Shown piece by piece: positions 38,191-63,764 of a stretch of DNA of 64,000 nucleotides. The translations under genes and the position numbers were made by a program. The stretch spans positions 704,001 through 768,000 of the forward strand of contig CAVSHB010000002.1 in NCBI GenBank assembly GCA_963727775.1, written 5' to 3'. A model generated the notes under the pieces. The model saw only the letters and a program-made list of their open reading frames with translations, was not told the DNA's origin and made no database searches. Source of the stretch: an uncultured Nitrospiraceae bacterium (GTDB lineage: Bacteria > Nitrospirota > Thermodesulfovibrionia > Thermodesulfovibrionales > SM23-35). How positions within the stretch are numbered: position 1 is the stretch's first letter; each line of letters starts with the position of its first letter.

Positions 38191-38300
38191 AAGGATATAA
38201 GGTTGCCCTTGAGCGGCTTTTTTCGCTGATAAGCGAAAACCTCGGAGGTCCCGAAAGCTTTCGGGACCGAGAATGAGCGAAAGGGGAAGCTTATATCCTT
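38191..38300 (+). repeat. Structured repeat family, copy 1
   Basis: Outer IR AAGGATATAAG/CTTATATCCTT; GAGCGG; TTTTCGCT-GATA-AGCGAAAA; ACCTCGGA-GGTCCCGAAAGCTTTCGGGACC-GAGAATGAGCG. Confidence 0.85.
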
Positions 38301-38309
38301 TATAAAAAG

Positions 38310-39086
38310 TTAATTTTCCCACACAATCTCCTCAAACGGGAAAACAGGGCCTTCCTTGCACACCCGTTTGTAGCCGCTGACTGTATTAACGGCGCATCCG
38401 AGGCATGCTCCGAACCCGCAGGCCATATTCTCTTCCAGTGACGCATATCCTCTTATATTTTTATCGGCGGCAATCTTTGACAATGCCTTAAGCATAGGCT
38501 TCGGGCCGCAGGCGTACATGACATAAGATGTATCAGCAATGGAATGAGAAGATAGAAAATCATTTACAATGCCGTCAACCATTCCTTTCTTTCCGAAGGA
38601 GCAGTCATCCGTGCAGATGAGCAGTTCATTCCCAGATTTTTCCAACTCGGCAAGCATAAGAAGTTCTTTCCTGTTCTTTGCGCCGTAGACTAAATACGCT
38701 TTTCCCGAATACGCTTCAGCCAAAGAAAAAATGGATGCTATCCCTGTACCGCCGGCAACTAATAATGGGGTCTTACCGTTTCCCGGTTTGGGGTATCCTG
38801 TGCCGAGTGGTCCGATTATGTTCACTATTCCGCCGCGTCTGAAATCCTTCATTAAGGATGTGCCTTTCCCAATTACCGTATAGATAAACTGGATTGTCTC
38901 CGATGTTCTCCTGAAATAACTGAAAGGCCTTTTCAGCAGCGGGTCGTATGTATTGCCTGTTTCTATCATATAGAACTGTCCCGGAGCGGGCTCAATTACA
39001 GGGGCCAGAGGTTCTGTTATAAGAAGATTGTTTTTGCTGTTTAAAGGGAGGTTATCGGTAATTTTTGCCTTGAAGTTTCTATTCAA
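38310..39086 (-). CDS. pyrK: Dihydroorotate dehydrogenase electron transfer subunit
   Basis: RPFS, GGTGIA, MACGFGACLGC, VCKEGPVF. Confidence 0.93.
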   Translation of the reverse strand: MNRNFKAKITDNLPLNSKNNLLITEPLAPVIEPAPGQFYMIETGNTYDPLLKRPFSYFRRTSETIQFIYTVIGKGTSLMKDFRRGGIVNIIGPLGTGYPKPGNGKTPLLVAGGTGIASIFSLAEAYSGKAYLVYGAKNRKELLMLAELEKSGNELLICTDDCSFGKKGMVDGIVNDFLSSHSIADTSYVMYACGPKPMLKALSKIAADKNIRGYASLEENMACGFGACLGCAVNTVSGYKRVCKEGPVFPFEEIVWEN

Positions 39087-39555
39087 ATCTTATCTCTAAT
39101 ATCTCATACTCCAGGGTCTTCGCGGGGGCTTTAATAATAACTTCATCGCCGATCTCTTTGTTCAGTAAGGCCTTTCCGACAGGAGAGCTTATGGAAATCC
39201 TTCCGTTCTTAACATCCGCTTCGTCGGGTCCGACGAGCATGAAAATTCTTTCCTCGTTACTGTCGAGGTCAAGTACCTTGACCTTTGCCCCGAAGGCGGT
39301 CTTGCTCTGGGAAATTCTTGACGGGTCTATGACATCCGAGAGGGCAAGCTTTGTTTTCAGCTCCTGTATCTTTCCCTCTATAAAAGACTGCCTTTCCTTT
39401 GCCGCATGGTATTCCGCGTTTTCGGAAAGATCGCCGTGCGCCCTCGCTTCTGAAATGTCCTTTATATTATTCGGCCGTTCGATCTTCAGAAGCTTTTGAA
39501 GCTCATCCTGCATCTTATGATATCCGTCAGGCGTGATCGGCATTCTTTTGAGCAA
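39079..39555 (-). CDS. greA: Transcription elongation factor GreA
   Basis: HGDLSENAEYHAAKE, ISISSPVGKAL. Confidence 0.95.
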   Translation of the reverse strand: MLKRMPITPDGYHKMQDELQKLLKIERPNNIKDISEARAHGDLSENAEYHAAKERQSFIEGKIQELKTKLALSDVIDPSRISQSKTAFGAKVKVLDLDSNEERIFMLVGPDEADVKNGRISISSPVGKALLNKEIGDEVIIKAPAKTLEYEILEIRFE

Positions 39556-39665
39556 ATTATTTCCCTCCCTGAATGAATTAATTTAACACTTTTATGGTAA
39601 ATTTTTCTATATTAGATATCATCACGGATGTCAACAAAATTCCAGAACAATTAAAGGAGCAAGCC

Positions 39666-41336
39666 ATGCGATTTTCGAAGATGCTTATACCGACATTGAG
39701 GGAAGTCCCTGCCGACGCAGAGGCAATAAGTCATATACTCATGTTAAGGGCTGGCTATGTGAGACAGCTTGCAGCCGGACTTTATATTTCCCTGCCGCTC
39801 GGCCTCAGGGTCACAAGGAAGATACACAGAATCTTGCGCGAAGAGATGGCCGCCATAGGCGCGCAAGAGATCACGCTGCCCGCGCTGCACCCGGCTGAGA
39901 TATGGCAGGAGACCGGAAGATGGTATGAGATCGGTGATGAGATGTTCAGGCTGAAGGACAGGTCAGGCCGTGATATGTGTCTCGGCATGACCCATGAAGA
40001 GATAATGACGTGGCTTGCCGCGAGAGAAATCCGGTCTTACAGAGACCTGCCTCAGGTCTGGTATCAGGTCCAGACAAAATTAAGGGATGAGGCCAGACCG
40101 AAGAGTGGCGTGCTCAGGACAAGAGAATTCATAATGAAAGACAGCTACAGTTTTGACGCTGACGAAGAAGGTCTCGAAAAGAACTATCAGCTCCATGCAG
40201 AAGCCTATCACAGGATCTTTTCAAGATGCGGGTTGAAGTATTACATGGTCCACTCGGATCCGGGCATGATGGGCGGCGCGACCTCTCACGAGTTTATGGC
40301 CCCGAGCGCGGCAGGTGAAGATGAAGTCGTGCTTTGCGATTCCTGCGGATATGCCGCCAATATGGAACTTGCCCTTTCGAATCCGAAGGCGATAGAAATA
40401 ATGGATTGGGAGTTGGAAGAGGTCCATACGCCCGAAAAGCGCACTGTTCAGGAGGTATCGAACTTCCTGAAGCTGAAACCCGAATATTTTATCAAGAGCC
40501 TGCTGCTTATCACGGACGACGGTCCTGTTCTTGCCCTTATGAGGGGAGATCAGGAGGCACACGAAAAAAAGCTCAACAGGATCATAGGCAGACACAGACC
40601 GGCGCAGAAGAGTGAGGTCAAGGAGATACTCGGCGTGGAGGCGGGCTTCATAGGACCTATGGACCAAAAGATCAGGATTATTGCAGATAACTCGATTAAA
40701 GAAGGCGTCTATGTAAGCGGCGCTAATAAACAACATTATCATGTGAAAGGAATAAGGCCGGACAGAGATTTTTCCGCCGAATGGCATGATATAACCCTTG
40801 CAAGAGACGGGGACTTGTGCGCGAAGTGTAATTCCCCCATAAGGATCGAAAAAGTGATCGAGATAGGCAATATCTTCAAGCTCGGCACAAAATACTCCGT
40901 CCCTTTAAATGCGCTCTATCTCGATGAGAAAGGGAGTGAGAAGCCGGTTGTCATGGGAAGTTATGGAATAGGGCCAGCAAGAATCGCTGCGGCTGCCATA
41001 GAACAAAACTACGACAAAGACGGGATCATATGGCCTAAGACCATAGCCCCTTTCGATGTTGTTATCCTGCCGTTGAATATGAATGACGCTAAGACGGTCG
41101 AGCTGGCCGAGAGATTTTACAGGGAGCTGACGGAGAAAGGTATAGAGGTCCTGATAGATGACCGTGAGGAAAGGGCGGGAGTGAAGTTCAAAGACGCTGA
41201 TCTCATAGGTATCCCGACCCAAATTATTCTTGGAGAAAAAAACCTGAAAGACGGTCTGGTGGAGATTAAGGACAGGAAGACAAAGGAAACAATAAAGATA
41301 AAGATTGAAGAAGTGGTGGAGAGAGTGAAAGCTTAA
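39666..41336 (+). CDS. proS: Proline--tRNA ligase
   Basis: MRFSK start with AAGGAG RBS; THEE, RDEARP..REF, GSYGIG, DADLIG. Confidence 0.96.
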   Translation: MRFSKMLIPTLREVPADAEAISHILMLRAGYVRQLAAGLYISLPLGLRVTRKIHRILREEMAAIGAQEITLPALHPAEIWQETGRWYEIGDEMFRLKDRSGRDMCLGMTHEEIMTWLAAREIRSYRDLPQVWYQVQTKLRDEARPKSGVLRTREFIMKDSYSFDADEEGLEKNYQLHAEAYHRIFSRCGLKYYMVHSDPGMMGGATSHEFMAPSAAGEDEVVLCDSCGYAANMELALSNPKAIEIMDWELEEVHTPEKRTVQEVSNFLKLKPEYFIKSLLLITDDGPVLALMRGDQEAHEKKLNRIIGRHRPAQKSEVKEILGVEAGFIGPMDQKIRIIADNSIKEGVYVSGANKQHYHVKGIRPDRDFSAEWHDITLARDGDLCAKCNSPIRIEKVIEIGNIFKLGTKYSVPLNALYLDEKGSEKPVVMGSYGIGPARIAAAAIEQNYDKDGIIWPKTIAPFDVVILPLNMNDAKTVELAERFYRELTEKGIEVLIDDREERAGVKFKDADLIGIPTQIILGEKNLKDGLVEIKDRKTKETIKIKIEEVVERVKA

Positions 41337-41389
41337 GTTTATTGACATAAGCAAATCCGGATTCTTATTTAAAAACTAACGAGGAAGAT

Positions 41390-42457
41390 ATGGAAGACAT
41401 GCAATATTGGATACTGAAAAAGGAAAAGTTTAACGACTTCATCTCAAGACTTTCTCAGATGCAGAAGCTGGTTGCTCCTGTTTCAAAGGGGTACAATAAC
41501 TTTGCATTCGAAGAAGTTACCACGGCCGCTGAGATCTCGCTCGTATATATCCCGACCGTACTGCCGCTGAAGAAATTCTTTATGCCGCAGCGTGAGACCC
41601 TACTGAAGTTTAAAACGGCCAAGGGGGCTAACGCTGAAGCCGTTGTCGAATATGAACCGATGACAATCTTCGGTGCTCACACCTGTGATCTTGCCGGTAT
41701 CCAGTGTCTCAATATGGTATTTTCCGAACGGCCGAAAGATTACAATTATCTGACGCGCAAGCACAAGATAACATTGATCGGATTGGAATGTAATGATTAT
41801 TGTGATGAATATGCGAGTTGTCATCTGGTAAATGCAAGTTTTCCCAGCGGCGGATACGACCTTTTTTTCACGGATTTGGGGGATTATTTCATCGTCCATG
41901 TCAATACCCAGACAGGAGATGACATAGTCGATGCAACCGGATTTTTTGAAAAGGCTGACGGGTCGCATATGAATGATCTGGAAAGATTGCGCGATCATAA
42001 GAGAAAAGTGTTCAATAACGAAGTCCCTATAGAAGGCAAGTATATACCGGAATTGTTCGACAGGTCTTTCAGGGCGCCGGTATGGAAAGACCTGAACGAA
42101 CGGTGCCTGGCATGCGGAAATTGCACGAATGTATGTCCGTCATGCTACTGTTTTGACATACGTGATGAGCTTGATCTGAGCCTGAAACGCGGGGTCAGGT
42201 ATCGCGTCTGGGATTCCTGTCAGCTTGAACCGTTCGCCAAAGTCGCCGGCGGCATAAATTTCAGGAAAGAGCGCTCAACAAGGCAGAGGCACAGGTATTA
42301 CCGTAAATTCAGGTATCCCGTCGACAAATTTTCGCGGTTCTTCTGCACAGGGTGCGGCAGATGCACCCGCACATGCATGGCCCGCATCAGCCTTAAAGAG
42401 ACCCTCAATGAACTGATAAAAGAGAGCGAGGACAGAGTATGGAAAAAGTGGCTTTAA
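41390..42457 (+). CDS. Sulfhydrogenase-type beta subunit (4Fe-4S dicluster)
   Basis: CLACGNCTNVCPSCYCF, CTGCGRC. Confidence 0.88.
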   Translation: MEDMQYWILKKEKFNDFISRLSQMQKLVAPVSKGYNNFAFEEVTTAAEISLVYIPTVLPLKKFFMPQRETLLKFKTAKGANAEAVVEYEPMTIFGAHTCDLAGIQCLNMVFSERPKDYNYLTRKHKITLIGLECNDYCDEYASCHLVNASFPSGGYDLFFTDLGDYFIVHVNTQTGDDIVDATGFFEKADGSHMNDLERLRDHKRKVFNNEVPIEGKYIPELFDRSFRAPVWKDLNERCLACGNCTNVCPSCYCFDIRDELDLSLKRGVRYRVWDSCQLEPFAKVAGGINFRKERSTRQRHRYYRKFRYPVDKFSRFFCTGCGRCTRTCMARISLKETLNELIKESEDRVWKKWL

Positions 42458-43275
42458 AAGATTCCAGTTATAGATTAAAAAAGGCAAAGATCCTTCATAC
42501 AAAAAAGCTGACTGCCAATGAAAAGTTTTTTGAGCTAGCGCTCAGAGACGGCAGTTCACTCGACCACGAACCGGGACAGTTTATTATGGTCTCTTTCCCC
42601 GGTATCGGAGAAGTACCCATTTCCGTCTGTTCATCTCCCGTGAAACGCGACTCCTTTGATCTCTGTGTCAGGGCTGTCGGCAAAGTCACCAGGAGTCTGC
42701 ATAAATTAAAGTCGGGAAATGAGATAGACATACGCGGACCTTACGGAAAAGGTTTCCCCATAAGGATCCTCGCTGGGAATGATTTATTGATCATCGCAGG
42801 CGGACTGGGTATCGCACCCTTGCGTTCTTTAATTACATATGTCCTCGACAACCGCCGCGATTTCGGAAAAGTCCATATTTTATTTGGCTGCAAGGAGCCA
42901 AAGGACATGCTTTTCGGAGATGAGCTTGAAGGCTGGAATAAGCGCACAGACCTCCATTATGCCTGTACGGTGGACCGTGCAGCCCCTGATTGGGCGGGCA
43001 ATGTCGGTGTAATCACAACGCTGATACCGGGTGTTGATATCGAACCGCAAAGAACGTTTGCTGCAATAGTCGGTCCTCCGGTCATGTATAACTTTGTCAT
43101 AAAAGAGCTGTTGGCCAAGGGAATTCCCGAGCGTCAGATCCTTTTGTCCTTCGAGCGCAACATGAAATGCGGCAATGGGAAATGCGGCCGCTGCCAGATC
43201 CAGAACCTCTATGTTTGCCAGGATGGGCCGGTTTTTAATTATGAACAAATCAAAAACTTGAGCGAGGCGTTTTAG
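42439..43275 (+). CDS. Sulfhydrogenase-type gamma subunit (FAD/NAD(P), 2Fe-2S)
   Basis: PGQF, GGLGIAP, MKCGNGKCGRC, CQDGPVF. Confidence 0.88.
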   Translation: MEKVALKDSSYRLKKAKILHTKKLTANEKFFELALRDGSSLDHEPGQFIMVSFPGIGEVPISVCSSPVKRDSFDLCVRAVGKVTRSLHKLKSGNEIDIRGPYGKGFPIRILAGNDLLIIAGGLGIAPLRSLITYVLDNRRDFGKVHILFGCKEPKDMLFGDELEGWNKRTDLHYACTVDRAAPDWAGNVGVITTLIPGVDIEPQRTFAAIVGPPVMYNFVIKELLAKGIPERQILLSFERNMKCGNGKCGRCQIQNLYVCQDGPVFNYEQIKNLSEAF

Positions 43276-43276
43276 G

Positions 43277-44017
43277 ATGAAGAAACCAAACGTTGGAATT
43301 TTCGATTTTGCCTGCTGTGAAGGATGCCAGTTACAGATCGCAAACATGGGCGAAGCTGTCCTGGATGTGCTCGGTTCCATAAATGTTCTGGAATGGAGAG
43401 AAGTCATGTCCGAAAAGTGGGGCAAGAACCTGGACATCGCCATCATAGAAGGAAGCATTACAGACCCGCATGCAGTTAAACGCATACAGCAGATACGGAA
43501 AAAAGCAAAGGTCCTCATTACCATCGGTTCCTGTGCAACAATAGGCGGGGTAAACGGCATGAAGAACAACTTCGACCTTAATGATATCAGACAGTATGTT
43601 TATGGAGGCAGCTACAGGTTCTTCCCGACAGAATTGACAAAGGCCGTTCACCAGGTAGTTAAAGTTGACTATTTTGTCCATGGCTGTCCAATGTATATCC
43701 CGGAATTTGTTACGGTTATAAAGGCTGCTTTGCAGGGTGTCCCTTATTATGTCCCCGATTACCCTGTATGTGTTGAGTGCAAACTTAATGAGAATGTATG
43801 TATGTATGACAGAAAAGTCACATGCCTCGGCCCTGTTACAAAGGCCGGATGCAACTCATGGTGCATAAATAACGGTAATATCTGTTACGGCTGCCGCGGC
43901 ATGGTCAGCAACCCTAATGAAAAAGGGGCTAAGGACGTGCTGGCTAAATACAGGATCCCTATGGAACTTATATTGAACAAAATGAATATGTACAACAAAT
44001 GCAGGGAGCTCGGCTAA
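43277..44017 (+). CDS. [NiFe]-hydrogenase small (delta) subunit
   Basis: CCEGC, GSCA, HGCP, CVEC, CLGP, CYGCRG. Confidence 0.9.
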   Translation: MKKPNVGIFDFACCEGCQLQIANMGEAVLDVLGSINVLEWREVMSEKWGKNLDIAIIEGSITDPHAVKRIQQIRKKAKVLITIGSCATIGGVNGMKNNFDLNDIRQYVYGGSYRFFPTELTKAVHQVVKVDYFVHGCPMYIPEFVTVIKAALQGVPYYVPDYPVCVECKLNENVCMYDRKVTCLGPVTKAGCNSWCINNGNICYGCRGMVSNPNEKGAKDVLAKYRIPMELILNKMNMYNKCRELG

Positions 44018-44018
44018 T

Positions 44019-45350
44019 ATGAAAAAAAACGTGAGTATAAATGTTGAATACCTTACAAGGGTTGAAGGGCATGGAAACATTGTTATCAATGTAAAAGACG
44101 GAAAAATAGAAACCTGCCGTCTGGACATAGTCGAAGCGCCCCGGTTTTTTGAAGGCATACTCCGTGGCCGTTCCATATTCGAAGCCCAGCATATCACGAG
44201 CAGGATCTGCGGTATCTGTGCCTGCGGACATACCCTCGCCTCAATACAGGCAGCGGAGGATGCCCTCGGCATCACTCCGACTGAACAGACAATAAAACTG
44301 AGGAAACTTTTGCTTCACCTCGAAATACTCGACAGTCACATTCTGCATATATATCTTTTAGTCGCCCCCGACCTGCTTGGAGTCAAAAGTTTTGCCCCGT
44401 TGATCAGCAGTCACAATGAAGTTGTCCGCAGGGCTTTACGGATGAAAAAGACCTGTAACGACCTCTGCGATGTTCTTGTTGGCCGCCATGTGCATCCGAT
44501 ATCTGCGATTGTCGGCGGGTTTACAAAATTACCACGATCTAAAGATCTGGACGCAATGCTCAATATGCTCACCGGTATGAGGGCTGATATGGAAGCGACC
44601 GTAGAATTGGCTGCTTCGCTGAGATTCCCTGAATTCGAGCGTGACACCGAATATGTGGGACTTGTGAGCGATGACGCTGAATATCCTCTGTTAATGGGAG
44701 ATATCGGTTCTACAGACGGCGTAAGAATGAATAAAAAAGATTATAAGAATATTACCAATGAGTTTATCGTCCCTCACTCCTCTGCCAAACATGCAAAGCT
44801 CAGCAGGGAATCATATGCAGTAGGCGCATTGGCCCGGTTTAATCTGAATGCTGAAAAGCTGCATCCAAAGGCCAAACAAGTGGCCTCTGCTGTGGGACTG
44901 AAGCCTAAATGCATTAATCCCTATCTGAATACTGTTGCACAATTAATAGAAAGTGTTCATTGTCTTGAAGAGGCAATAGCTATTGTAGAGGATTTGAAGA
45001 GCAAGCCCGTAAATTACGATGAGGAAATCGTTGTCGGGCTGAATGAGCAGCACAGGATTCCCGTAAGAGCCGGCAACGGCGTGGGAGCAGTAGAAGTCCC
45101 AAGAGGTATCCTCTTCCACAATTATCAGACCGATGAAAATGGGATCATTGTAAATGCCAATTGTATTATCCCTACAAATCAGAACACCGGCAATATTGAG
45201 TACGATATGATGAAACTTGTTCCTGAGATTCTTGATAAAAGTGAAGAGGAAATGGCCCTTGCTATTGAAATGCTGGTCAGGGCCTATGACCCCTGTATCT
45301 CATGTTCAACCCATCTTTTGGATATCAGGTTTGTGAACAACAAAGAATAA
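44019..45350 (+). CDS. [NiFe]-hydrogenase large (alpha) subunit, group 3b-type
   Basis: TRVEGHG, RICGIC (L1), DPCISCSTH (L2) plus C-terminal extension. Confidence 0.93.
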   Translation: MKKNVSINVEYLTRVEGHGNIVINVKDGKIETCRLDIVEAPRFFEGILRGRSIFEAQHITSRICGICACGHTLASIQAAEDALGITPTEQTIKLRKLLLHLEILDSHILHIYLLVAPDLLGVKSFAPLISSHNEVVRRALRMKKTCNDLCDVLVGRHVHPISAIVGGFTKLPRSKDLDAMLNMLTGMRADMEATVELAASLRFPEFERDTEYVGLVSDDAEYPLLMGDIGSTDGVRMNKKDYKNITNEFIVPHSSAKHAKLSRESYAVGALARFNLNAEKLHPKAKQVASAVGLKPKCINPYLNTVAQLIESVHCLEEAIAIVEDLKSKPVNYDEEIVVGLNEQHRIPVRAGNGVGAVEVPRGILFHNYQTDENGIIVNANCIIPTNQNTGNIEYDMMKLVPEILDKSEEEMALAIEMLVRAYDPCISCSTHLLDIRFVNNKE

Positions 45351-45368
45351 TTTTATCGGCTTTTATTG

Positions 45369-45554: not shown

Positions 45555-45670
45555 TATTTTCCTCCTTTGAGATAAGTTTTATTTTCAAAAAATCATATGC
45601 CCGACAACTCCCGTATTTAAGTGTGATATATAAAATTATATCAGATTATAACCTACACTATTCACAAGAT

Positions 45671-45770
45671 TGCCGACAGATACATTATTTAAGCGGTTAT
45701 ATTCTTTCGAAGAAAGAATTTACCTCGGAGGCCCGATTCGTACCGGGCCGAGAATGAGCGAGAAAATTCT
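45671..45770 (+). repeat. Structured repeat family, copy 2 (3' outer arm lost)
   Basis: AAGCGG; ATTCTTTC-GAA-GAAAGAAT; ACCTCGGA-GGCCCG..CGGGCC-GAGAATGAGCG; 5' arm nearly identical to copy 3. Confidence 0.85.
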
Positions 45771-45808
45771 GCTCCCGGTGTAATGGCCCATGCCAAGAAT
45801 AGTTATGA

Positions 45809-46189: not shown

Positions 46190-46255
46190 AAGTATTTGTT
46201 TTTCCCTTAATATTATTTGACAGCTATAACTAAGAATGGCTTATAATTTTGGTGA

Positions 46256-50558: not shown

Positions 50559-50587
50559 GGATAATTAACTCACACTATTCAAAAGAT

Positions 50588-50700
50588 TGCCGACAGATGC
50601 AGTATTTAAGCGGATTTAAATTCTTTCGAAGAAAGAATTTGCCTCGGAGGCCCGATTTGTACCGGGCCGAGAATGAGCGTAAATACTGTATTTGTCGGCA
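50588..50700 (+). repeat. Structured repeat family, copy 3
   Basis: 21-bp outer IR TGCCGACAGATGCAGTATTTA/TAAATACTGTATTTGTCGGCA with 2 G-T pairs; same core. Confidence 0.9.
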
Positions 50701-50736
50701 CCCGAAAATTTATGAATTAAGTGGGTTAAATATCTT

Positions 50737-54443: not shown

Positions 54444-54485
54444 GAAATGCATTTGAAAACACTGAGATTTATGGACGGACTCTAA

Positions 54486-54599
54486 TAAGGGAGGATACAG
54501 TGTTTGAGCGGTTTTAAATTCTGTGAAGATTTATCGGAACAGAATTTACCTCGCAGGGCGATAGCCCGAGAATGAGCTCAAATACTGTGTCCTCCCTTA
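54486..54599 (+). repeat. Structured repeat family, copy 4
   Basis: Outer IR TAAGGGAGGATACAGTGTTTG/CAAATACTGTGTCCTCCCTTA; TAAATTCTGT/ACAGAATTTA; ACCTCGCA-GGGC-GATA-GCCC-GAGAATGAGC. Confidence 0.9.
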
Positions 54600-54644: not shown

Positions 54645-56489
54645 CTACGGGACTAAGGCTCTATGGGTCTTTATTGCCAGGGATAGGAAAGATTTTTTGT
54701 CAGAGGAATAAAGGATGATTCCCTTCCGCTCAAAATCATCCAGGATTGAATATACATCCCCGGATGATCTGCCGAGTTCTTCGGATACTTTATCGATCGG
54801 CTGGTATTTTTCGATAGCCGAAAGATAGATATCTTTTTCTATTGAACCGAGAAGGTACTTTAATCTCTGCGCGCCCCGGGATATATCGATCTGCAAGCCA
54901 TTAGGGAAATCGGTATATAACATATAATTATCCCGCGGATTCTTGTCTTTAATCTCTTCGACTTTATTCCTTATTATTCCTGATAACCTGTACTGTTCAT
55001 CGTCATTATCAAACTGATACGGATAGGGATAATTGGAATAAGACGGCATCGGAAAGTCTTTAAAGATAGACGAAAAGATAGACGCGGCGTGTCTTTGCAG
55101 GCCGTATTTTTCGATGTCCAGAAAAACAGGGCAGTCCGTCGGCAGATAGAATTCTCCGGGATAGATCTGAATATTTTCACTTACAAGTATATGGGTAATG
55201 AGGTCCATGACCCGGAGATTTTCCTTCACGTCGTTTTCCGTCATATTCGGGAAACATGTGAAAAGATTAAACTGGACAGGCACTCCCAATTCTGCGGCAG
55301 CCTTCAAGACCTCAACGTTTTTTAAAGCCGTAACACCCTTGTTCATTAGCCGGAGCAGCCTGTCACTGAACGTTTCGATCCCGATCTGGAAGTTTGATAC
55401 CCAATTGCCGAAGCGATGAATCGCCGACAGCACTTCTTTGTCCATTCTCTCAGCGCGAAATTCCGCATAGATAAAATTGAAGTCCTTGCCTTCAAGGTAC
55501 CCGGATATGTCCTTAATATTTTTCGGGTCCTTGAGCGCATCTGAATCCAGAATGAAAAAATTTCTGAGGTTCGAAGAAATACTCTGGTAGTATTCTATTT
55601 CTTCTTTCACACGCGCAGAGGTCTTTGCCTGGCACAGTATGTTGTATGATTCATCTGGACAGAAGCTGCACTTTTTCCATGGACAACCTCTTCCAAATTC
55701 AATCGGCAGAATGATGTCTCTGTGTTCTATGGGGAATTCGGTAAAATCATATTTGGGGAAGGGGAGAGAATTGATCGACACATTCGGTTTTGGTTTTGAA
55801 TCTCTGGTTTCTCCGGTTTTGTCTCTGAACACGACATTATAGAAATCTTTTCCGGAATCCGTGATATGTTCAAGCAAGTTTTCAATTGTCACTTCACACT
55901 CGCCGATACCCACGAAATCCAGGAAGTCCATATTTTTCAGCAGATCTTTGGCAAAAGTGCCTGAACAGTCTTTGCCTCCGACGATAGTTAGGATATCGGG
56001 ATATGAATGTTTTATCATCGAGCACAGCAGGAGAGAGCCGCTTAATTGGTAATGGGAGCAGCTGAAACCTATGAGTTTTGTGCCTTTTAAATACGGCGAC
56101 AGCTTTGAATAGGCCGACTTGATAAATGCGCCGGCTGTTTCCCTTATTTCTTCGAAGTCGTTTAATGTTAATCCGAGCGAAGCAAGGCGGTCTGCGAAAC
56201 GGTCTTTTGAATTTTGATACCTCTCCTCAAAAAGGAGTGTTGCGAAGACATAATCCAGTCCCATGTATTCCACGCCGGACTGTTCTGTAAGTTTAAGCAG
56301 ATTGTCGGTGATTCTCGGATCAAAATTTCTAAGGAAGGAAAGAAACTCGAGATGAAGATGAAAGGTTTTGGCACTTTTCCCTTTCTCCGCCAGGTAAGAT
56401 TGCATAATGCCGAGGTTGATGTTAGGTATATTGGCAAACCATTTTGATATAAATCTCGCATAGGGCATGGAAACAAAGATAAAATCCAT
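54645..56489 (-). CDS. B12-binding radical SAM enzyme, resembling RiPP-maturation class B methyltransferases
   Basis: VSMPY..PNINLG N-terminus, GFSC, VGG, GECE, RGCPWKKCSFC, QIGIETFS. Confidence 0.8.
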   Translation of the reverse strand: MDFIFVSMPYARFISKWFANIPNINLGIMQSYLAEKGKSAKTFHLHLEFLSFLRNFDPRITDNLLKLTEQSGVEYMGLDYVFATLLFEERYQNSKDRFADRLASLGLTLNDFEEIRETAGAFIKSAYSKLSPYLKGTKLIGFSCSHYQLSGSLLLCSMIKHSYPDILTIVGGKDCSGTFAKDLLKNMDFLDFVGIGECEVTIENLLEHITDSGKDFYNVVFRDKTGETRDSKPKPNVSINSLPFPKYDFTEFPIEHRDIILPIEFGRGCPWKKCSFCPDESYNILCQAKTSARVKEEIEYYQSISSNLRNFFILDSDALKDPKNIKDISGYLEGKDFNFIYAEFRAERMDKEVLSAIHRFGNWVSNFQIGIETFSDRLLRLMNKGVTALKNVEVLKAAAELGVPVQFNLFTCFPNMTENDVKENLRVMDLITHILVSENIQIYPGEFYLPTDCPVFLDIEKYGLQRHAASIFSSIFKDFPMPSYSNYPYPYQFDNDDEQYRLSGIIRNKVEEIKDKNPRDNYMLYTDFPNGLQIDISRGAQRLKYLLGSIEKDIYLSAIEKYQPIDKVSEELGRSSGDVYSILDDFERKGIILYSSDKKSFLSLAIKTHRALVP

Positions 56490-56666
56490 ATTTTTTATTA
56501 TTGACTAAATCCAGCCTTTTTTCCAAGTGATCTTCTTTTATTGCTCTGAGGGAGGAAAGAATCGGGCATCATATACATATACATACCGGTCTAATGAAAC
56601 AATGCGCAGTTTGCTTTTTTTATAAATAATTTTTTATGCTAAATATAATATTAACTTTTTGGAGGT

Positions 56667-57023
56667 TTGGTGATGACTATAACTGATAAGGCTGCCGAAA
56701 AGGCAAAGGCCATATTGGCCGTTGAAGGAAAAGACAACTGGGGCATTAAGATTTATGTCGCCGGTGAAAGCTGCTGCGGGCCGTCATTCGGGCTCAATTT
56801 CCAGGAAACCCAGATGCCTGACGACGAAGTCGTCGAAAAAAACGGGGTTAAGGTATATATCGACAAACAGACTTCGGAAACACTTTCGGAACGGGAACTC
56901 GACTATTATATGGGTGCTGACGGAGAGGGCTTTATCTTTACCGGTGGGGTTTCATCCTGCGGCACAGGCGGTTCATCGTGCGGCTCCGGCTCCGGCTGCG
57001 GTTCAGGCTGCGGTTCAGAATAG
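56667..57023 (+). CDS. HesB/IscA-family Fe-S protein with Gly/Ser/Cys-rich tail
   Basis: ITDKAAEK, SCCGPSFGL, GVKVYID, tail SCGTGGSSCGSGSGCGSGCG. Confidence 0.8.
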   Translation: MVMTITDKAAEKAKAILAVEGKDNWGIKIYVAGESCCGPSFGLNFQETQMPDDEVVEKNGVKVYIDKQTSETLSERELDYYMGADGEGFIFTGGVSSCGTGGSSCGSGSGCGSGCGSE

Positions 57024-57034
57024 AGCTGCAATAA

Positions 57035-58006
57035 ATGTATCCGGTCCATAGACCAAGAAGGTTAAGGAAGAACGCGACTATCAGGAGAATGGTGAGGGAG
57101 ACCTCATTATCTCCTGATTGTTTTATTTACCCCCTTTTTGTTACCTTCGGCAAAGGCGTAAAAAAAGAGATCTCTTCAATGCCCGGTTGTTTCCAGGAAT
57201 CCGTTGATTTGATCGTCAAACACGCCAAAGAGGTTTATTCCCTCGGGATCCCTGCCGTATTGCTCTTCGGCATCCCGGAACACAAAGATGAAATCGGTTC
57301 AGGCGCATACGATGAGCATGGCGTTGTACAGAAGGCAATTGGGGCAATTAAGAATAAAGTGCCTGGCCTTTATGTTATCACGGACGTCTGCATGTGCGAG
57401 TACACAAGCCACGGCCATTGCGGCATCATAAAGAATTGCGATGTCCAGAACGACCCGACACTCGAACTATTAGCGAAAGAGGCCTTCTCCCATGCAAAGG
57501 CGGGCGCTGATATGGTCGCTCCGTCGGACATGATGGACGGAAGGGTTGAGGCTATAAGACTCGTACTCGATGAAAATGGGTTCGAGGAAATCCCGATAAT
57601 GTCCTATGCCGCTAAATACGCGTCCGCCTTCTACGGGCCGTTCAGGGAAGCGGCAGAGTCTACTCCGCAATTCGGCGACAGGCGGTCATACCAGATGGAC
57701 CCCGCAAACAGGCGAGAGGCGTTGAAAGAGGTGGCGCTTGATATCGAAGAAGGCGCGGACATTGTGATGGTGAAACCGGCGCTTTCGTACCTCGACATAA
57801 TCTCCGATGTTCGTGATTCATTTGATGTTCCCGTTGCCGCTTATAACGTAAGCGGAGAGTATTCTTTGGTAAAGGCTGCGGGAAAACTCGGCTGGATCGA
57901 TGAACAGCGTGCTATGATGGAGATCCTTACCTCAATAAAGAGGGCGGGCGCAGACCTGATCCTCACCTATTTTGCTAAAGAAGCAGCAAAGATTCTGAAT
58001 AAGTAA
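57035..58006 (+). CDS. hemB: Porphobilinogen synthase
   Basis: [26 protein letters not shown]. Confidence 0.96.
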
Positions 58007-58075
58007 TCAGCTACCAGAGTTTACCTATCAATCAACTGCGATATTTCGACCTTCTCCGTTAAAACGTATCCCTCT

Positions 58076-59983
58076 TTAGACATGGCTGCTTTCTCCATAC
58101 ATCCCCAGCCAATTTATAAAGTCCTGTGGGGCTAACGGCTCACTAAAAAGAAACCCTTGCGCTTCATCACACTTCTGGGAACGCAAAAATTCCAGTTGAT
58201 CAACATTTTCAACCCCTTCAGCAATCACTTTTAACCCCAGGCTGTGTGACATCGCAATAATCGCCTTGGAAATCGACTTATCATTAGGGTTTATCGCAAT
58301 TGAATGTAAAAAGGATTGGTCAAGTTTTATCTTGCTCAGTGGTAAGTATTTAAGATAACTTAAAGATGAATAACCAGTTCCAAAATCATCAATAGAAATG
58401 TTTATCCCAAGAGTTTTTAATTCATTGAGCGTCGACAAAGCCAAATCTGAATCCTGCATGACTGCACTTTCTGTGAGTTCCAGTTCTAAATACTTTGATT
58501 CCAGATTTGTTTCTTCTAATATATTCATCAACATTTTTACAAATGTTTTGTGCTTAAGCTGATGCATTGAAACATTGACTGACAGGACAATCGACGGAAG
58601 CCCGGCTTCCTGCCATGCTTTGTTCTGAGCGCAGGCAGAACGTACTATCCATTCGCCTATGGGTTGAATAAGACCCGTTTCTTCTGCTAACGGGATAAAC
58701 CGCATCGGAGGCAATAAACCATAATGGAGATTATGCCAACGCATTAGCACCTCCGCACCAACAACTTTCCCACTTTTCAAATCCACTTCCGGCTGGTAGT
58801 GCAAAATGAACTCCTTCTGCTGGAGTGCCTTATGTAGATAGCTTTCCATTTTTATTTTTTCCATAACATATGCATTGATTGACGGTGTATAGAATTGATA
58901 GTTGTTCCTTCCCTGTTCTTTGGCATGATACATGGCCGCGTCTGCATTTTTTACAAGTGATTCCAGATCGTTACCGTTTTCAGGAAAGATGCTGATGCCA
59001 ATACTCCCCGTGGTATAGATTTCTTTATTATTGATTACAAATACCTCAGATAGTTTTTCAAGGATTTTATTTGCAACGACAGAAGCAGCGTCAGTATTAT
59101 TTATATCACAAAATAGAAAGAGAAATTCATCGCCTGACAGACGGCTGACTGTATCACCTTCACGCATGGTATCCTGTAAACGCTTTGACACTGCCTGAAG
59201 AAAGAGATCACCTGTATTGTGACCAAATGTGTCGTTGATGAACTTGAACCTATCCAGGTCAATGAACATAATAGCTAATGATCGCTTATGTCTGCGTGCT
59301 TTTGCCAGTTCTTGTCTTAAACGATCATCGAATAAAGAACGATTAGGCAGACCTGTCAGGGTATCGTAAAAAGCAAGCTTTTTTATAATCTCTTCATTTC
59401 TCTTGCGGTCTGTAATATCTTCGCAAATCGTAATAATAGAAAGAACTTCTCCCTTAGTATTTTTAACTACATCCGACATTAAATATACAGGAAAGTTAGT
59501 GCCGTCTTTTCTTACATTAATGCTTTCTCTTTTATATGTGCTTTGTATCTGTTCGGGCATGGGTTTCCATATTTCAGGTGGACTAAATACTCGGGCTTCA
59601 GTGCCGAATAGATCTATATCGCTATAACCGTGCATTTCAGCATCAGCAGGATTTGAATAGATAATCTTTCCCTTTGCATTGCTGATGGTTACACCTATTT
59701 GCATATTATCAATGGCCTTTTTCAATGAAAGAAGAGTTTCTTCATCTCTCTTATGATCGGTAACCTCATGTTTCCATCGGCGATATAACAACAAGATAAG
59801 CCACAATAAATAAAGAAAAATGAAATTGATGATGAGTTCTATTGCAGGGAAACTTGTATATATGCTTACAAGTTCTTCGAGGATATGGATAAAATTCAAC
59901 GTTAACTTGAAAAAAGTGACAATGAAGGCAAGGAATAGGATAATGGATAGATAGAGGAGAGTTTGACTTTTCCTTTCCTTCAT
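58076..59983 (-). CDS. Membrane PAS-GGDEF-EAL protein
   Basis: 2 TM, PAS, RLSGDEF, EVL, DDFGTGYSS; start 59983 is a best guess. Confidence 0.9.
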   Translation of the reverse strand: MKERKSQTLLYLSIILFLAFIVTFFKLTLNFIHILEELVSIYTSFPAIELIINFIFLYLLWLILLLYRRWKHEVTDHKRDEETLLSLKKAIDNMQIGVTISNAKGKIIYSNPADAEMHGYSDIDLFGTEARVFSPPEIWKPMPEQIQSTYKRESINVRKDGTNFPVYLMSDVVKNTKGEVLSIITICEDITDRKRNEEIIKKLAFYDTLTGLPNRSLFDDRLRQELAKARRHKRSLAIMFIDLDRFKFINDTFGHNTGDLFLQAVSKRLQDTMREGDTVSRLSGDEFLFLFCDINNTDAASVVANKILEKLSEVFVINNKEIYTTGSIGISIFPENGNDLESLVKNADAAMYHAKEQGRNNYQFYTPSINAYVMEKIKMESYLHKALQQKEFILHYQPEVDLKSGKVVGAEVLMRWHNLHYGLLPPMRFIPLAEETGLIQPIGEWIVRSACAQNKAWQEAGLPSIVLSVNVSMHQLKHKTFVKMLMNILEETNLESKYLELELTESAVMQDSDLALSTLNELKTLGINISIDDFGTGYSSLSYLKYLPLSKIKLDQSFLHSIAINPNDKSISKAIIAMSHSLGLKVIAEGVENVDQLEFLRSQKCDEAQGFLFSEPLAPQDFINWLGMYGESSHV

Positions 59984-60201
59984 TGTTCGCTCATTTTGTG
60001 TAAAAAACCAGTTAGTTTTTCTGAACATTTTTGCTTTCAAAGTGAGGACAGCGTATTTTCAGGTTTAACTTCAAATTCTTTGAGCAAGGACTAAATATAT
60101 TGCATGTCTGAGAAAGGCTATTTCTGTTGATGCAACTAATATTTAGACTTATTTTATACCCCACAAAAATATGTTGAGGTGAAGGAAAAAATCATCGTTA
60201 C

Positions 60202-60561
60202 TTAATTTGATTTCACAAGCAAGACGTCAGCAACAATTTCTTTGCTGCTATTTTCTGACTTCGTTACTTTCTGAAGAGTGAAATCTTTTCCGCAAACAAT
60301 TTTTGCAACATCTTCTGTTTTTAGGTTGGAGAACTGTTCTTGAGTTACAGCCCATGTTACCGGTCCAACAGTTACTGCTTTTCCCTCGCAATATCCTGCC
60401 ACTATCGCGGTGACGTTCCCAGTTTTGTTGTCATAAGTTGCTCCCAGTCTTCCCGAAACTATAGAGACTGATGAATCCGCATAGGCCAGAGTTGCTCCGA
60501 TGGAAATCGATACTAATAATAAAGCCATGAATAGCAATCTCACTGCGCTCTTTTTACACAT
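60202..60561 (-). CDS. Small secreted hypothetical protein
   Basis: MCKKSAV start after GAGGG; signal peptide ending AYA; two Cys in mature part. Confidence 0.7.
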   Translation of the reverse strand: MCKKSAVRLLFMALLLVSISIGATLAYADSSVSIVSGRLGATYDNKTGNVTAIVAGYCEGKAVTVGPVTWAVTQEQFSNLKTEDVAKIVCGKDFTLQKVTKSENSSKEIVADVLLVKSN

Positions 60562-60689
60562 ACCGCCCCTCGCTTTTTTTATAGACAACAGTTTATAAGA
60601 GAAAAACACAACCCTCTGAAAGATTTCTTCCTTCACTCTCATCCAGACAAAAATGTCTTTGTACCTTTTTCTACTACAATACACTTTAA

Positions 60690-60728
60690 ATGTTAAGGAA
60701 AAAGCAACCTCTTGTCAAGGCAACCTCT
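60690..60728 (-). promoter_or_regulatory. Sigma70-type promoter with direct repeats flanking -35
   Basis: Minus strand AGAGGTTGC-C-TTGACA-AGAGGTTGC..., 17-bp spacer, TAACAT. Confidence 0.5.
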
Positions 60729-60738
60729 GGGCTTTTTT

Positions 60739-62085
60739 TTAAAAAAAGTGTTTAAAGGGAAATTTTGACTTTTTCCCTTTTTTGAGAAGTTTACCTATCT
60801 CTTCAGGGGGAAGAGGAAGGCTGAATATGTTACCCTGAAGTTCATCACATTTGAGGGAACGGATGAGTTGCATCTGTTCCTTCTTTTCCACGCCTTCAGC
60901 TACGACCTTCATATTCAGCGTATGAGCTAAAGCGATAATCGCCCTTGCAATAACCTCGTCTGTAGGACTGAATGAGACTGAAGATATGAAAGGCTCTACA
61001 ATCTTCAGCTTGTTTATAGGAAAATATTTAAGGTAACTGAGGGAAGAGTAGCCAGTTCCAAAATCATCGATAGAGATACTCACACCTATCTTCCTTAACA
61101 CTTTAAGTGCCTTAACAGTACGCTCCAGATTTTTCAAAAAGATACTCTCTGTTAATTCTAATTCGAGGAATTTAGGTTCAAGCCCGGTATCTTCAAGCAC
61201 TCTGCTTACGATATATGTTATGTCTTCTTCATGGAATTGACGGGATGAGATGTTCACCGCAATACGTAAAGGTTTGAGGCCGGCTTCCTGCCAAACTTTA
61301 TTTTGTTTGCAGGCTGTGCGGAGGACCCATTCACCGAGTGGCACAATAAAGCCTGTTTCTTCCATTAAATAAATAAAGCTCTTTGGATAAATTAAGTTAC
61401 TCCCTGGCTTCTGCCAGCGAACAAGGGCCTCCAGGCCGGTTATCATCCCTGATTTAAGGTCAATTTGCGGCTGGTAGTGAAGGATGAACTCTTCACGTTG
61501 GAGTGCAAATTTCAGATCATTCTCCATTACCATTCGCTCAAACGCCCTTTCAGTTAAAGCTGGCGAATAGAATTGATATGTGTTTTCCCCGAGTTCCCTT
61601 GAGCGTTGCAAGGCTGTATAAGATGTATTGAGGAGAGCTTTAGGACTATTCCCGTCGTTTGGATAGACGCTGATTCCGACATTAATTGGCACAATCAATT
61701 TATGGTTTTTAAGAGTAAAAGGTGATTCTAAAGAGGCAAATATCTTTCTGGCTATTAGGGCGGCATCTTCAGCATGTCTGATCTCGGGTAGCAAAATCAT
61801 AAACTCATCTCTGCCAGGTCGAGCCACAATATCGCTCTTTCTTACACAAGCTTTTAGACGTTTTGCTATCGCCTTTAATAATTTATTGCCATAATTTTCA
61901 CCAAGTGTATCGTTAATTAGCTTTAAACGATCAATGCAGATAAACAAAATAGCCGCAATATTTTTATTTCGGGCTGCAAGTGCAAATGCCTGTGTTACAT
62001 AGTCAAAGAAGACATTTCTGTCAAGAAGCCCTGTCAAGGGATCGCAGGAAGCAGTTTTATTTACAGTTTTTTTCTGGTCTTTCAA
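60739..62085 (-). CDS. GGDEF(degenerate)-EAL protein
   Basis: RPGRDEF, EAL, DDFGTGYSS, KIVEPF. Confidence 0.88.
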   Translation of the reverse strand: MKDQKKTVNKTASCDPLTGLLDRNVFFDYVTQAFALAARNKNIAAILFICIDRLKLINDTLGENYGNKLLKAIAKRLKACVRKSDIVARPGRDEFMILLPEIRHAEDAALIARKIFASLESPFTLKNHKLIVPINVGISVYPNDGNSPKALLNTSYTALQRSRELGENTYQFYSPALTERAFERMVMENDLKFALQREEFILHYQPQIDLKSGMITGLEALVRWQKPGSNLIYPKSFIYLMEETGFIVPLGEWVLRTACKQNKVWQEAGLKPLRIAVNISSRQFHEEDITYIVSRVLEDTGLEPKFLELELTESIFLKNLERTVKALKVLRKIGVSISIDDFGTGYSSLSYLKYFPINKLKIVEPFISSVSFSPTDEVIARAIIALAHTLNMKVVAEGVEKKEQMQLIRSLKCDELQGNIFSLPLPPEEIGKLLKKGKKSKFPFKHFF

Positions 62086-62396
62086 TTCAAGTCTTTTTCA
62101 GCTCCCGTGAGCTGTCTGTCGATCGAACAAGTATCCCGATCACTATCTGAAAAGCATTAAAAATTGCAAGGACATCTTATTGCCCTATTTTTCGTTTCAT
62201 CACTAATCTGACATGTCATTGGGATATCTTTAAATCTTTCTGACTCTAATTAGAATACAAAAATATTGATTTTGTCAAATATTCAGATTAAAAGTAGGCA
62301 ACTCTATTTTGTTGATTCGTGTTTGTATTGTCGCATCATAGAACAAGCTTTCAAAATCTCGCTTAGAATAGGAAGTACTTCAGTAATTCTGACCCT

Positions 62397-62879
62397 TCAT
62401 GCGACTCTTGTTTCTTGCTCTTTTCCTTTCAACCTTTGCCTGTAAGCGTCATAATCAGGCACGAAGCGCTCGTACGCTTCGGACATTAATGATGACGAAA
62501 TTATGAAGTCCGCCGAGGCCCGGTTGCACGCTACGGGAATGTTCCAGACTACGGCTATCCTCAAAAGGGCTTTCACGTCAGGATCGTGAGGCTGCGGTTC
62601 AAGAGGGTCCCAAAAAAAGATCAGGAAATCAATGATCCCTTCTGCTATCTTTGCGCCAATTTGCTGGTCGCCACCCAATGGGCCGCTTTGAAGTTTGATG
62701 ATCTCAAGCCCGAGTTCCTTCTCCAGAATAGTACCCGTCGTTCCCGTGGCATACAGCTTGTGCTGGGCAAGAAGCTCTCTATTAAATTTTGCCCATTGCA
62801 GAAGATCAGATTTCTTATTGTCGTGGGCAACGAGGACGATATTCTTCCTCTGCTCCATTTCTATCTTTTTAGATTCCAT
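62397..62879 (-). CDS. mgsA: Methylglyoxal synthase
   Basis: [42 protein letters not shown] before ATG 62879. Confidence 0.95.
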
Positions 62880-62963
62880 AGAATTGTCCTCCTTATTCAA
62901 AGTAATCTCTCCATCCAGATTCTTATTTGCACTACGCACAATTATATCAGGTTCGAGGGATTT

Positions 62964-63575
62964 TTAAATTAAGCCCTTCTCCCTGTAAATGGACAGAAAA
63001 ATGTCCTCTTTCTTATGCATCAATGTCACCGACCGGGAAAAGGTGGTAATCGCAAATTGAAGGATATCTTCAGGCTTCACATAAAATAATTCAACGTTTC
63101 TTTGAGGAACATAGTATGTCAGAAGGTTTAGATGTAGGGCCTCTCTGCAGAATCCGAAAAGTTTTTTCAGCACATTCTTCATGGATTCCTCAATCCCGGC
63201 AACCCTGAGGCTGAATACACCACAGATAAAAATCACCTCAAACTTTTGCCTAAACTCTGTCTCTTCTATATCTATGGCACTAAACTCTGCCTCGGGATAT
63301 TTCTTCTTAGCAAGTGTAATCAAATTCTCGTTGACGTCGATCCCGCAATAACTTAGAGAAATCCCCTTTCCCCTGATGAATCCGTAAAAATCTCCCTTCC
63401 CGCATCCGAAGTCGAGGACCTTTTTGCCTGAGATATTGCCTGCAATAGTAAGGAGGGTCTCATACCTCCGCTGCTGGCCTTCGGGGGTCCATCTCACGGC
63501 TTGCGGCGAATCACCGAAGTCTTTCAGGTGCCTGTCATAGAAGCTCAAAAGCTCTTTTTTGCCGAGGGGGTCCAT
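62964..63575 (-). CDS. Class I SAM-dependent methyltransferase
   Basis: VLDFGCGKG, GIDVN. Confidence 0.88.
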   Translation of the reverse strand: MDPLGKKELLSFYDRHLKDFGDSPQAVRWTPEGQQRRYETLLTIAGNISGKKVLDFGCGKGDFYGFIRGKGISLSYCGIDVNENLITLAKKKYPEAEFSAIDIEETEFRQKFEVIFICGVFSLRVAGIEESMKNVLKKLFGFCREALHLNLLTYYVPQRNVELFYVKPEDILQFAITTFSRSVTLMHKKEDIFLSIYREKGLI

Positions 63576-63652
63576 TTTTTTTAAGATATACTTATTATAG
63601 TCTTAGCCGGCAGGATTGGAAACCCTGTTCCCAATACAAGAAATAAGATATC

Positions 63653-63764
63653 AATGCGGGAGACAGTATTTGAGCGGCTTTAAATTCTGTGAAGATTTAT
63701 CGGAACAGAATTTACCTCGGAGGGCAACAGCCCGAGAATGAGCGAAAATACTGTCTCCCGCATT
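63653..63764 (+). repeat. Structured repeat family, copy 5
   Basis: Perfect 19-bp outer IR AATGCGGGAGACAGTATTT/AAATACTGTCTCCCGCATT; core as in copy 4. Confidence 0.9.

Follow-up and report, generated by a model that had tools for sequence, protein, structure and literature searches.

A mobile, gene-less repeat family with a conserved core and a predicted three-way-junction fold in Nitrospirota and other bacterial phyla

Inspection of the window, a 64,000-nucleotide stretch of contig CAVSHB010000002.1 from an uncultured Nitrospiraceae bacterium, revealed five copies of a repeat in which a closing stem (P1) and two hairpins (P2 and P3) surround a fixed core. A preliminary description of this DNA had placed all five copies and their layout correctly, a covariance model returns exactly these five within the window, and the gene contexts are, as it reported, co-directional (copies 1 and 4), convergent (copies 2 and 3) and divergent (copy 5). 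The features are as follows.

38191 to 38300, plus strand: copy 1, without end repeats, between pyrK and pyrD (both on the minus strand)
38213 to 38219, 38240 to 38247 and 38268 to 38278, plus strand: core of copy 1, with P2 at 38220 to 38239 and P3 at 38248 to 38267
45652 to 45667, plus strand: 5′ IS1380-type terminal repeat of copy 2, one mismatch to the pattern
45671 to 45759, plus strand: copy 2, with 5′ P1 arm, core, P2 and P3 present and the 3′ P1 arm lost
50565 to 50568, plus strand: left TTAA target duplication of copy 3
50569 to 50725, plus strand: copy 3, a complete 157-bp miniature element
50569 to 50584 and 50710 to 50725, plus strand: 16-bp end repeats of copy 3
50588 to 50700, plus strand: Y-shaped part of copy 3, with core at 50610 to 50616, 50642 to 50649 and 50668 to 50678
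50726 to 50729, plus strand: right TTAA target duplication of copy 3
54486 to 54599, plus strand: copy 4, a GCA-bulge variant without the 5′ IS1380-type end
54508 to 54514, 54549 to 54556 and 54567 to 54577, plus strand: core of copy 4
63652 to 63765, plus strand: copy 5, without clear end repeats
63674 to 63680, 63715 to 63722 and 63733 to 63743, plus strand: core of copy 5

Copies 1, 3, 4 and 5 yield three-armed folds with z scores of -7.9 to -9.6 against 200 shuffles, and the z score drops to -2.05 in copy 2, which retains its 5′ end repeat, carries one altered T in the core and has indeed lost the 3′ P1 arm. Across 30 diverse copies two-sided changes occur in 22 of 29 pairs, and 92.5% of the cells pair vs 41-52% in slid controls, upholding both the three-armed fold and the covarying stems. 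The P1 arms do vary from copy to copy, as had been claimed, but not independently: copies 2 and 3 belong to a single arm family, and homology extends to all arms. The unit length of about 110 bp given earlier is too short, the intact unit being larger, as in copy 3 with its terminal inverted repeats and TTAA duplication. A scan for promoters and terminators around copy 3 found none.

Around the junction lies a near-invariant core of ~25 nt that is shared across phyla, an invariance partly built in by scanning the collections with exact core patterns (333 matches, from which 50 that failed the P1 filter and 8 duplicates were dropped; one of the analyses used 39 of the 41 non-Nitrospirota loci). 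The fixed core also takes in a TT after GCGG-N, which lies outside the search patterns and is present in 139 of 147 non-redundant copies, and a tandem G.A/A.G pair is found in 82 of the 147. Variants of P1, P2 and P3 occur in mixed combinations: in the source genome one P2 family is found with four P1 families and one P3 family with five, and in a planctomycete metagenome-assembled genome (MAG) similarity in P1 does not go with similarity in P2 or P3 (rho about 0). Loop inversions, whole-element flips and arms lengthened by inverted copies are visible as well. The idea that P1 arose by inverted copying of target DNA found no support; the arms share a positional profile, and the empty sites (20 stretches of an empty congener) are too diverged.

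Copy 3 lies between IS1380-type inverted ends that match four whole IS1380 elements, located on another contig of the source genome, encoding an NF033539 protein and likewise flanked by YTAR. The absence of a cognate transposase noted in the preliminary description is thus correct within the window but not for the genome, where the matching IS1380 family lies outside it. Both end repeats are present in 31 of 69 parsed copies in the source genome and in 45 of 206 elsewhere, compared with a background of 99 in 6000 random 60-mers per end, and identical YTAR 4-bp duplications flank 11 of the 31 two-ended copies here and 19 of the 45 elsewhere. Readings of these flanks as integron attC or Xer dif sites were dropped, since the flanks are IS1380 ends with duplications. 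With their matching inverted ends and short target duplications, the shelled copies appear to be IS1380-derived miniature elements (MITEs), and they resemble IS1380-family MITEs (NF033539 / PF13701) in being gene-less, with 16-bp inverted ends, 4-bp YTAR duplications and a total length of 147-195 bp. In contrast to such MITEs, the interior is no fragment of the IS1380 element, appears constrained for spread, and is shared with copies in other phyla that have another shell or none. The family as a whole does not depend on IS1380 ends: an IS1380-type end is absent from 16 of the 69 copies here and 139 of the 206 elsewhere, and the IS1380 transposase (E≤1e-40) is found in only 11 of the 57 family genomes, a count to be read with the loss of repeats from MAGs in mind.

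A whole-genome search returned 74 profile matches of at least 45 bits in the source genome, some in back-to-back pairs, vs 2 weak matches in the reversed genome, making the five copies members of a 74-copy family. Copy number ranges from 0 to 79 among the 57 family genomes, 52 of which carry the repeat, and spans 0 and 68, or 0 and 48, within single genera. The same 25-nt core has multiplied in MAGs of a planctomycete (118 copies, vs none in 39 of 40 relatives), Competibacteraceae (46), Gemmatimonadetes (37), Desulfobacteraceae (12) and Saccharibacteria (4). At least six phyla retain this one junction, with changes in stems, transposon shell and host. At orthologous sites, filled spacers stand against short ones in sequence too diverged to place the insertion junction; at a few of them the element is present in several genera, and one is occupied in both orientations. 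These observations show patchy bursts and indicate that the gene-less repeat is mobile and dispensable. In viruses, none of 53 pattern matches was confirmed by the covariance model, plasmid and phage collections gave no match, and no replication-strand bias was seen (29 vs 40, with a weak GC skew). The family was not found described in a search of the open-access literature, motif-survey supplements aside; PMC11109978 contains no passage on Nitrospirota, planctomycetes or Patescibacteria.

Rfam searches with the whole window, 20 diverse loci and copy 1 gave no family, known ribozymes included, at gathering thresholds or E≤10, in agreement with the preliminary description, which did not recognise the repeat as a known family; copy 1 gave four chance matches far below gathering. 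Likenesses to twister-sister, HDV-like and c-di-GMP RNAs were rejected on the same grounds and on topology. The repeat shares with the small self-cleaving ribozymes (hammerhead, twister-sister, HDV-like and others in Rfam 15) a compact junction, a near-invariant core and free stems, but differs in its simple nested topology, with no pseudoknot evident, and in its DNA-type loops. As an intergenic palindromic repeat, sometimes back-to-back, it recalls REP/REPIN/BIME sequences, which, as summarized in PMC3733652 and PMC11893778, are presumably acted on as single-stranded DNA in trans by RAYT (Y1 HUH) transposases; however, the GTAG tag is missing from the alignments. The RAYT-like genes here have flanking repeats of their own, unrelated to the family; ends of IS200 genes are likewise unrelated, two IS200 copies merely abutting elements.

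Another likeness, judged from sequence, is that to the CGTC repeats (REPs, dRS3, NTS, SRM) cut by Ssn nucleases (Di Nocera 2013, PMC3733652; Chenal 2025, PMC11893778), which are also dispersed intergenic quasi-palindromes with an oriented fixed flank and patchy high-copy bursts. When P2 is removed, the minus strands of 143 of 147 copies fit the published SRM 3′ half-pattern, and those of 137 of 147 fit the 5′ half-pattern once its first two letters are dropped; the fit extends to the C behind the palindrome that PMC11893778 singles out as most important for binding. This match is effectively one observation, with a chance of about 4e-4 before allowing for the choices of strand, excision and dropped letters. 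The repeat does not qualify as a member: the full SRM tag (HGTC) is matched in 0 of 147 copies, an extra base breaking the CGTC tag; the additional hairpin, together with a closing stem of 20-25 bp, creates a three-way junction; the length is 90-150 nt vs 20-50 nt; and the strand that bears the stable loops is the complement of the one with the SRM-like reading. Association with small GIY-YIG genes is also lacking, a copy occurring at only 1 of 37 GIY-YIG loci, at a distance of about 1.3 kb, compared with 4 of the 37 for true SRMs; the small gene is absent from the source genome, where, as in 3 of 5 other-phylum genomes, only UvrC-sized matches are found.

No linked gene emerged, and no enzyme acting on the repeat was found. 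The 336 neighbor proteins fall into 299 clusters, the larger of which are orthologous sites, a Pfam scan of 117 of the 336 gave only one transposase, and none of 12 Y1 loci taken from genomes rich in the element has a copy. An IS91-like Y2 gene beside one locus (L290) was set aside as a single case, none of 8 homolog loci having a model match; no fixed position of the IS91 type is visible in the downstream stretches of the Y2 homologs inspected.

The preliminary description had taken the covarying stems as a sign of structural selection. The covariation is present but does not by itself establish such selection, as stems can be repaired or inverted by template switching (PMC8794818). Strand asymmetry and the distribution of private and shared mutations are better evidence. 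In P1, G.T pairs outnumber A.C pairs by 105 to 27, an excess that is not significant in P2 (25 vs 13) or P3 (18 vs 8) and that agrees as well with RNA as with DNA or with deamination of one strand. The 225 unique hairpins include 22 GNA triloops, which have unusual stability in DNA (PMC3201870), vs 5 on the other strand, and 18 GNNA loops vs 0 (GNRA 10, GNYA 8). One strand folds better and has DNA-type loops. In 38 sibling copies picked on P1 alone, private changes per site amount to 0.52 in the core vs 0.40 in P1, and the core is damaged in 11 of the 38; core changes are 12 private and 1 shared vs 16 and 13 in the stem (Fisher p=0.03; one subfamily). Core mutations arise at a normal rate after insertion and rarely spread, a pattern that says the core matters for spreading and not for the host, although the private/shared result could reflect gene conversion.

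The explanation we favor, to which we assign about an even chance, is a selfish module recognized as single-stranded DNA by a putative enzyme. The invariant three-armed core would fold in single-stranded DNA, the plus strand probably being the folded one, and would be recognized by a putative nicking or recombining enzyme, the repeat acting as DNA rather than RNA. Whole units would move when a DDE transposase, here that of IS1380, takes the shell; resident copies may exchange their hairpin heads by recombination in the invariant junction, and the long stem may be repaired or flipped by template switching. Copies with an intact core would found new copies more often. The core itself may derive from the CGTC/SRM hairpin-repeat lineage by gain of a second hairpin and the closing stem. 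Counting against this reading, a DDE transposase needs only the ends and offers no reason for a shelled copy to need its core. A broader proposal, which we consider possible but tentative, makes the core the unit for recognition or catalysis in a new cross-phylum class of mobile elements, either a single-stranded junction substrate for a new nuclease or recombinase or a new small ribozyme. It would improve spread so much that miniature elements of several unrelated IS families have captured it independently, and it would also spread without a shell.

It is rather unlikely that the core works as RNA, either as a new small self-cleaving ribozyme or as an RNase-processing or polar signal carried by mobile shells, with active-sense copies purged from operons. 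The near-invariant junction bases and the G.T bias in P1 are consistent with such a role, and of 36 co-directional spacers in the source genome only 6 have the folded strand as mRNA strand, a depletion of 6 vs 30 that RNA-level activity explains at least as well as the single-stranded DNA module; the antisense, divergent and convergent counts (30, 20 and 18) fit the background proportions of spacers (991 co-directional, 413 divergent, 320 convergent), and the planctomycete shows the same direction (6 vs 14). However, the bias is weak at other loci (24 vs 37, p=0.12) and reversed in one MAG (8 vs 5), and sense copies are tolerated between pyrK and pyrD (3 of 6) and in a planctomycete operon. 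The lack of any Rfam match, the absence of UUCG (0 of 225 loops) and of a GNRA preference, and the DNA-transposition marks left by shell-borne spread also argue against it.

Less probable still is passive cargo, that is, an ordinary miniature transposon with pairing kept by template switching and a core fixed only through gene conversion and exact-pattern searches. The clear IS1380 ends and duplications, the neutral decay of cores after insertion, and the inversions, flips and extended arms, which template switching can produce (PMC8794818; see also PMC8604942), fit this reading, but unrelated shells carry the same core, as do shell-less copies, the TT outside the search patterns is also fixed, and the placing of tandem G.A pairs, G.T pairs and stable loops on a single strand would not be expected from symmetric repair. 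Moreover, no convincing core-less IS1380 shell was found in the source genome except one deletion derivative. Of the roles named in the preliminary description (mobile ncRNA, ribozyme or HUH/REP-type substrate), the REP-type single-stranded substrate is favored, while a host ncRNA is unsupported: within genera copies are gained and lost, cores decay once inserted, and one orthologous site holds the element in both orientations. A regulatory RNA kept by the host, such as a 3′-end stability element or a CsrA/RsmA sponge, is highly improbable: GGA occurs in 51 apical loops vs 7 on the other strand, in loops that presumably resemble CsrA sites, many copies lie shortly behind stop codons and some sites are filled in several genera, but csrA was not found in the 96.8% complete source genome, 5 of 57 family genomes have no match, inserted copies are under no purifying selection and in most cases the folded strand is not the one transcribed.

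Dispersed repeats in bacteria are, for the most part, short hairpins linked to a single lineage and a single enzyme. Should the core be passive cargo, the family would serve as a warning that searches for RNA motifs can be misled by covarying stems in repeats. Structure-specific single-stranded DNA enzymes can serve as tools, as the Ssn family shows, and the retention of one junction across phyla points to a structure-specific single-stranded DNA enzyme or an RNA activity not yet described.

The Y-shaped repeat, in which a closing stem (P1) carries two hairpins (P2 and P3, the head) joined by near-invariant core linkers, is a real family that has no entry in Rfam, where our search was without match; literature searches found no account of it. 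The five copies reported for the window were confirmed by a sequence check, and a covariance model trained on 30 diverse copies returned exactly these five (forward-strand positions, with associated features):

38191-38300: copy 1, no clear shell of terminal inverted repeats
45671-45759: copy 2, 5' shell end kept
50569-50725: 157-bp unit, overlooked at first, that has inverted ends of 16 bp and a TTAA at either side and encloses copy 3 (50588-50700)
54470-54485: end of a different IS family (~1.6 kb; the genome has several complete copies), abutting the 5' arm of copy 4
54486-54599: copy 4, no clear shell
54645-56489: neighbor of copy 4, RiPP-maturation-type radical SAM protein (TIGR03975, below cut-off)
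63652-63765: copy 5, no clear shell

The proposed three-armed fold holds for four copies, far better than for shuffled sequences; copy 2 has lost its 3' arm as noted. Genome-wide, a profile built from exact matches detected 74 copies scoring 45 bits or more in 3.43 Mb versus two weak matches in the reversed genome, and the covariance model found 73 (150 of 783 candidates scored); no copy is spanned by a called ORF. Copies of different subfamilies are often arranged back to back, shell against shell, within 26-143 bp of each other (e.g. C1:266711-266989 and C3:471817-472107).

Across genomes, 333 pattern matches yielded 283 that passed a strand-neutral closing-stem test, 275 of them distinct and 147 non-redundant. 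Along the plus strand the order is P1 arm, commonly GA, GCGG-N-TT, hairpin P2, CCTCG(G/C)AG, hairpin P3, CGAGAATGAGC, usually GA, P1 arm. Since neither the TT following GCGG-N (139 of 147) nor the flanking GA/GA (82 of 147, the remainder often Watson-Crick) was part of the search patterns, both constitute independent evidence of constraint. The stems covary as described, with two-sided changes in 22 of 29 pairs and 92.5% of cells pairing versus 41-52% when slid. Template switching, according to PMC8794818 and PMC8604942, produces flips and loop inversions, and stem covariation alone is thus weak evidence of selection. The junction admits two registers, between which invariant bases do not discriminate: TT/AA plus CTC/GAG in one, and GG/CC, TC/GA and a second tandem G.A in the other. 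In one subfamily (L253, L254, L256, L280, L281, L328, L083, L133, L138), P2 has a conserved internal loop and an extra hairpin while the P3 loop is fixed as GCTG, possibly making an extra contact; Parcubacteria contribute at least one member, L083.

The earlier statement that no cognate transposase lies in the window is qualified by four whole elements on contig C1 that have ends matching those of copy 3, encode an IS1380-family transposase and lack the core. Of the 69 parsed copies in this genome, 31 have both IS1380-type ends, and 11 of these 31 lie between identical YTAR duplications; for copies elsewhere the figures are 45 of 206 and 19 of 45. Neither end is present in 16 of 69 copies here and 139 of 206 elsewhere. 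Ends similar to the ~1.6-kb IS family abut two further copies of the repeat. At C1:672113-672729 and C3:133614-134228, an IS200-type element terminates directly within a copy's terminal repeat, which suggests that the A/T-rich end is a target. A core-less derivative at C4:4089-4150, with the 5' end repeat and a short hairpin, apparently arose by deletion between direct repeats located in its two P1 arms.

The repeat is not confined to one order. It occurs in 52 of 57 genomes of the family at 0-79 copies, with both 0 and 68 copies within one genus and 0 and 48 in another; a narrower pattern applied to the phylum at large matched 5 of 201 genomes, and a GTDB scan matched at least 116 stretches. 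Relatives with similar copies bear Thermodesulfovibrionales or Nitrospirota labels, so this genome presumably belongs there as well. Among loci titled non-Nitrospirota, 27 of 39 score with the covariance model, three of the 27 belonging to its training set; two of the 27, L054 and L089, carry the Nitrospirota-type unit and look misbinned. Whole genomes hold 118 (planctomycete G279), 46 (Competibacteraceae), 37 (Gemmatimonadetes), 12 (Desulfobacteraceae) and 4 (Saccharibacteria) 3' cores, with 0 in controls, and 39 of 40 relatives of G279 have no copies. Judged by eye, the Competibacteraceae and Desulfobacteraceae copies have different, TA-flanked inverted-repeat shells, a few other loci have further shell types, and the G279 copies have none. 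No copy was confirmed in the viruses, phages and plasmids searched. At L430 (C4 of G279), one open frame, read by eye, takes in a minus-strand copy and the beginning of a type IV pilin-like gene, whose start codon could be the ATG within the core.

The nearest known repeats are NTS/SRM, which PMC11893778 describes as oriented hairpins cut by Ssn GIY-YIG nucleases and recognized only as ssDNA. Once P2 is excised, 143 of 147 copies match the 3' half of the SRM pattern on their minus strand, and 137 match its 5' half less the initial two letters. Since the core does not vary, these matches amount to one observation, with a chance of ~4e-4 before the choices of strand and excision, and common descent is therefore given roughly an even chance. 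Membership fails, as the full tag, altered in the element, fits 0 of 147, the stable loops lie on the opposite strand, and of 37 GIY-YIG loci just one has a copy in its vicinity. Links to RAYT, IS200, IS91-type Y2 and CsrA proteins were checked and are unsupported; at L290:1-600 only a few bases separate the end of a divergent IS91-like Y2 transposase gene from the copy that follows, and its tested homologues are arranged otherwise. Neighboring genes revealed no recurring family beyond orthologous sites. Two long RAYT-like Y1 genes (C3:395453 and C2:791752, frames of 314 and 288 aa) are bracketed by inverted repeats of their own (~20 bp), which have no relation to the Y-shaped element.

One strand of the element is favored: P1 mismatches on the plus strand are G.T in 105 cases versus A.C in 27 (P2 and P3 weaker, not significant), and folding energy is lower on that strand in 129-131 of 145 copies. 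RNA motifs favor GNRA and UUCG loops. Among 225 unique hairpins UUCG was absent, GNNA loops numbered 18 versus 0 on the other strand, their third base showing no bias toward purines (GNRA 10, GNYA 8), and GNA triloops, a DNA-stable motif according to PMC3201870, numbered 22 versus 5. These loop types favor ssDNA over RNA and argue against RNA-level activity of the core, which we consider doubtful. Counting for it and against an ssDNA reading, no more than 6 of the 36 copies in co-directional spacers of this genome have their folded strand on the mRNA side (p=7e-5). The transcribed orientation appears to carry a cost, for which RNA cleavage, polarity and nicking of the displaced DNA strand are candidates. 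Orientation fits background in the remaining three spacer contexts, and sense versus antisense counts elsewhere are 6 versus 14 (G279), 8 versus 5 (Gemmatimonadetes) and 24 versus 37 (other loci).

In 38 sibling copies chosen on P1 alone, private substitutions per site were 0.52 in the core, 0.40 in P1 and 0.65 in outer parts, and 11 cores were damaged. Shared/private counts were 1/12 for the core and 13/16 for P1 (p=0.03). The scarcity of shared core changes indicates that damaged cores rarely leave descendants, although gene conversion could contribute; that the element is passive cargo is unlikely. The freedom with which private changes hit the core indicates that cores, once inserted, enjoy no protection by the host, and a role as host regulator is highly improbable. 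Modules mix: a single P2 family is found alongside four different P1 families, and a single P3 family alongside five; the 44 copies analyzed in G279 comprise 37 P1, 13 P2 and 8 P3 families, with P1 and head similarity uncorrelated. Of 30 genomes drawn from throughout the order, 2 hold the element in the pyrK-pyrD spacer; with four loci added because they bear it, the six copies lie three per orientation, with related P1 arms and different heads. Element-less spacers there contain other palindromic repeats (L222, L213), one a CGTC-like inverted pair, and the site looks like a repeat hotspot.

The element can best be regarded as an elaborate relative of REP/SRM repeats that spans phyla and is carried by miniature transposons, which in this lineage are of IS1380 type; it would, with an even chance in our estimation, be recognized as ssDNA by a putative enzyme.
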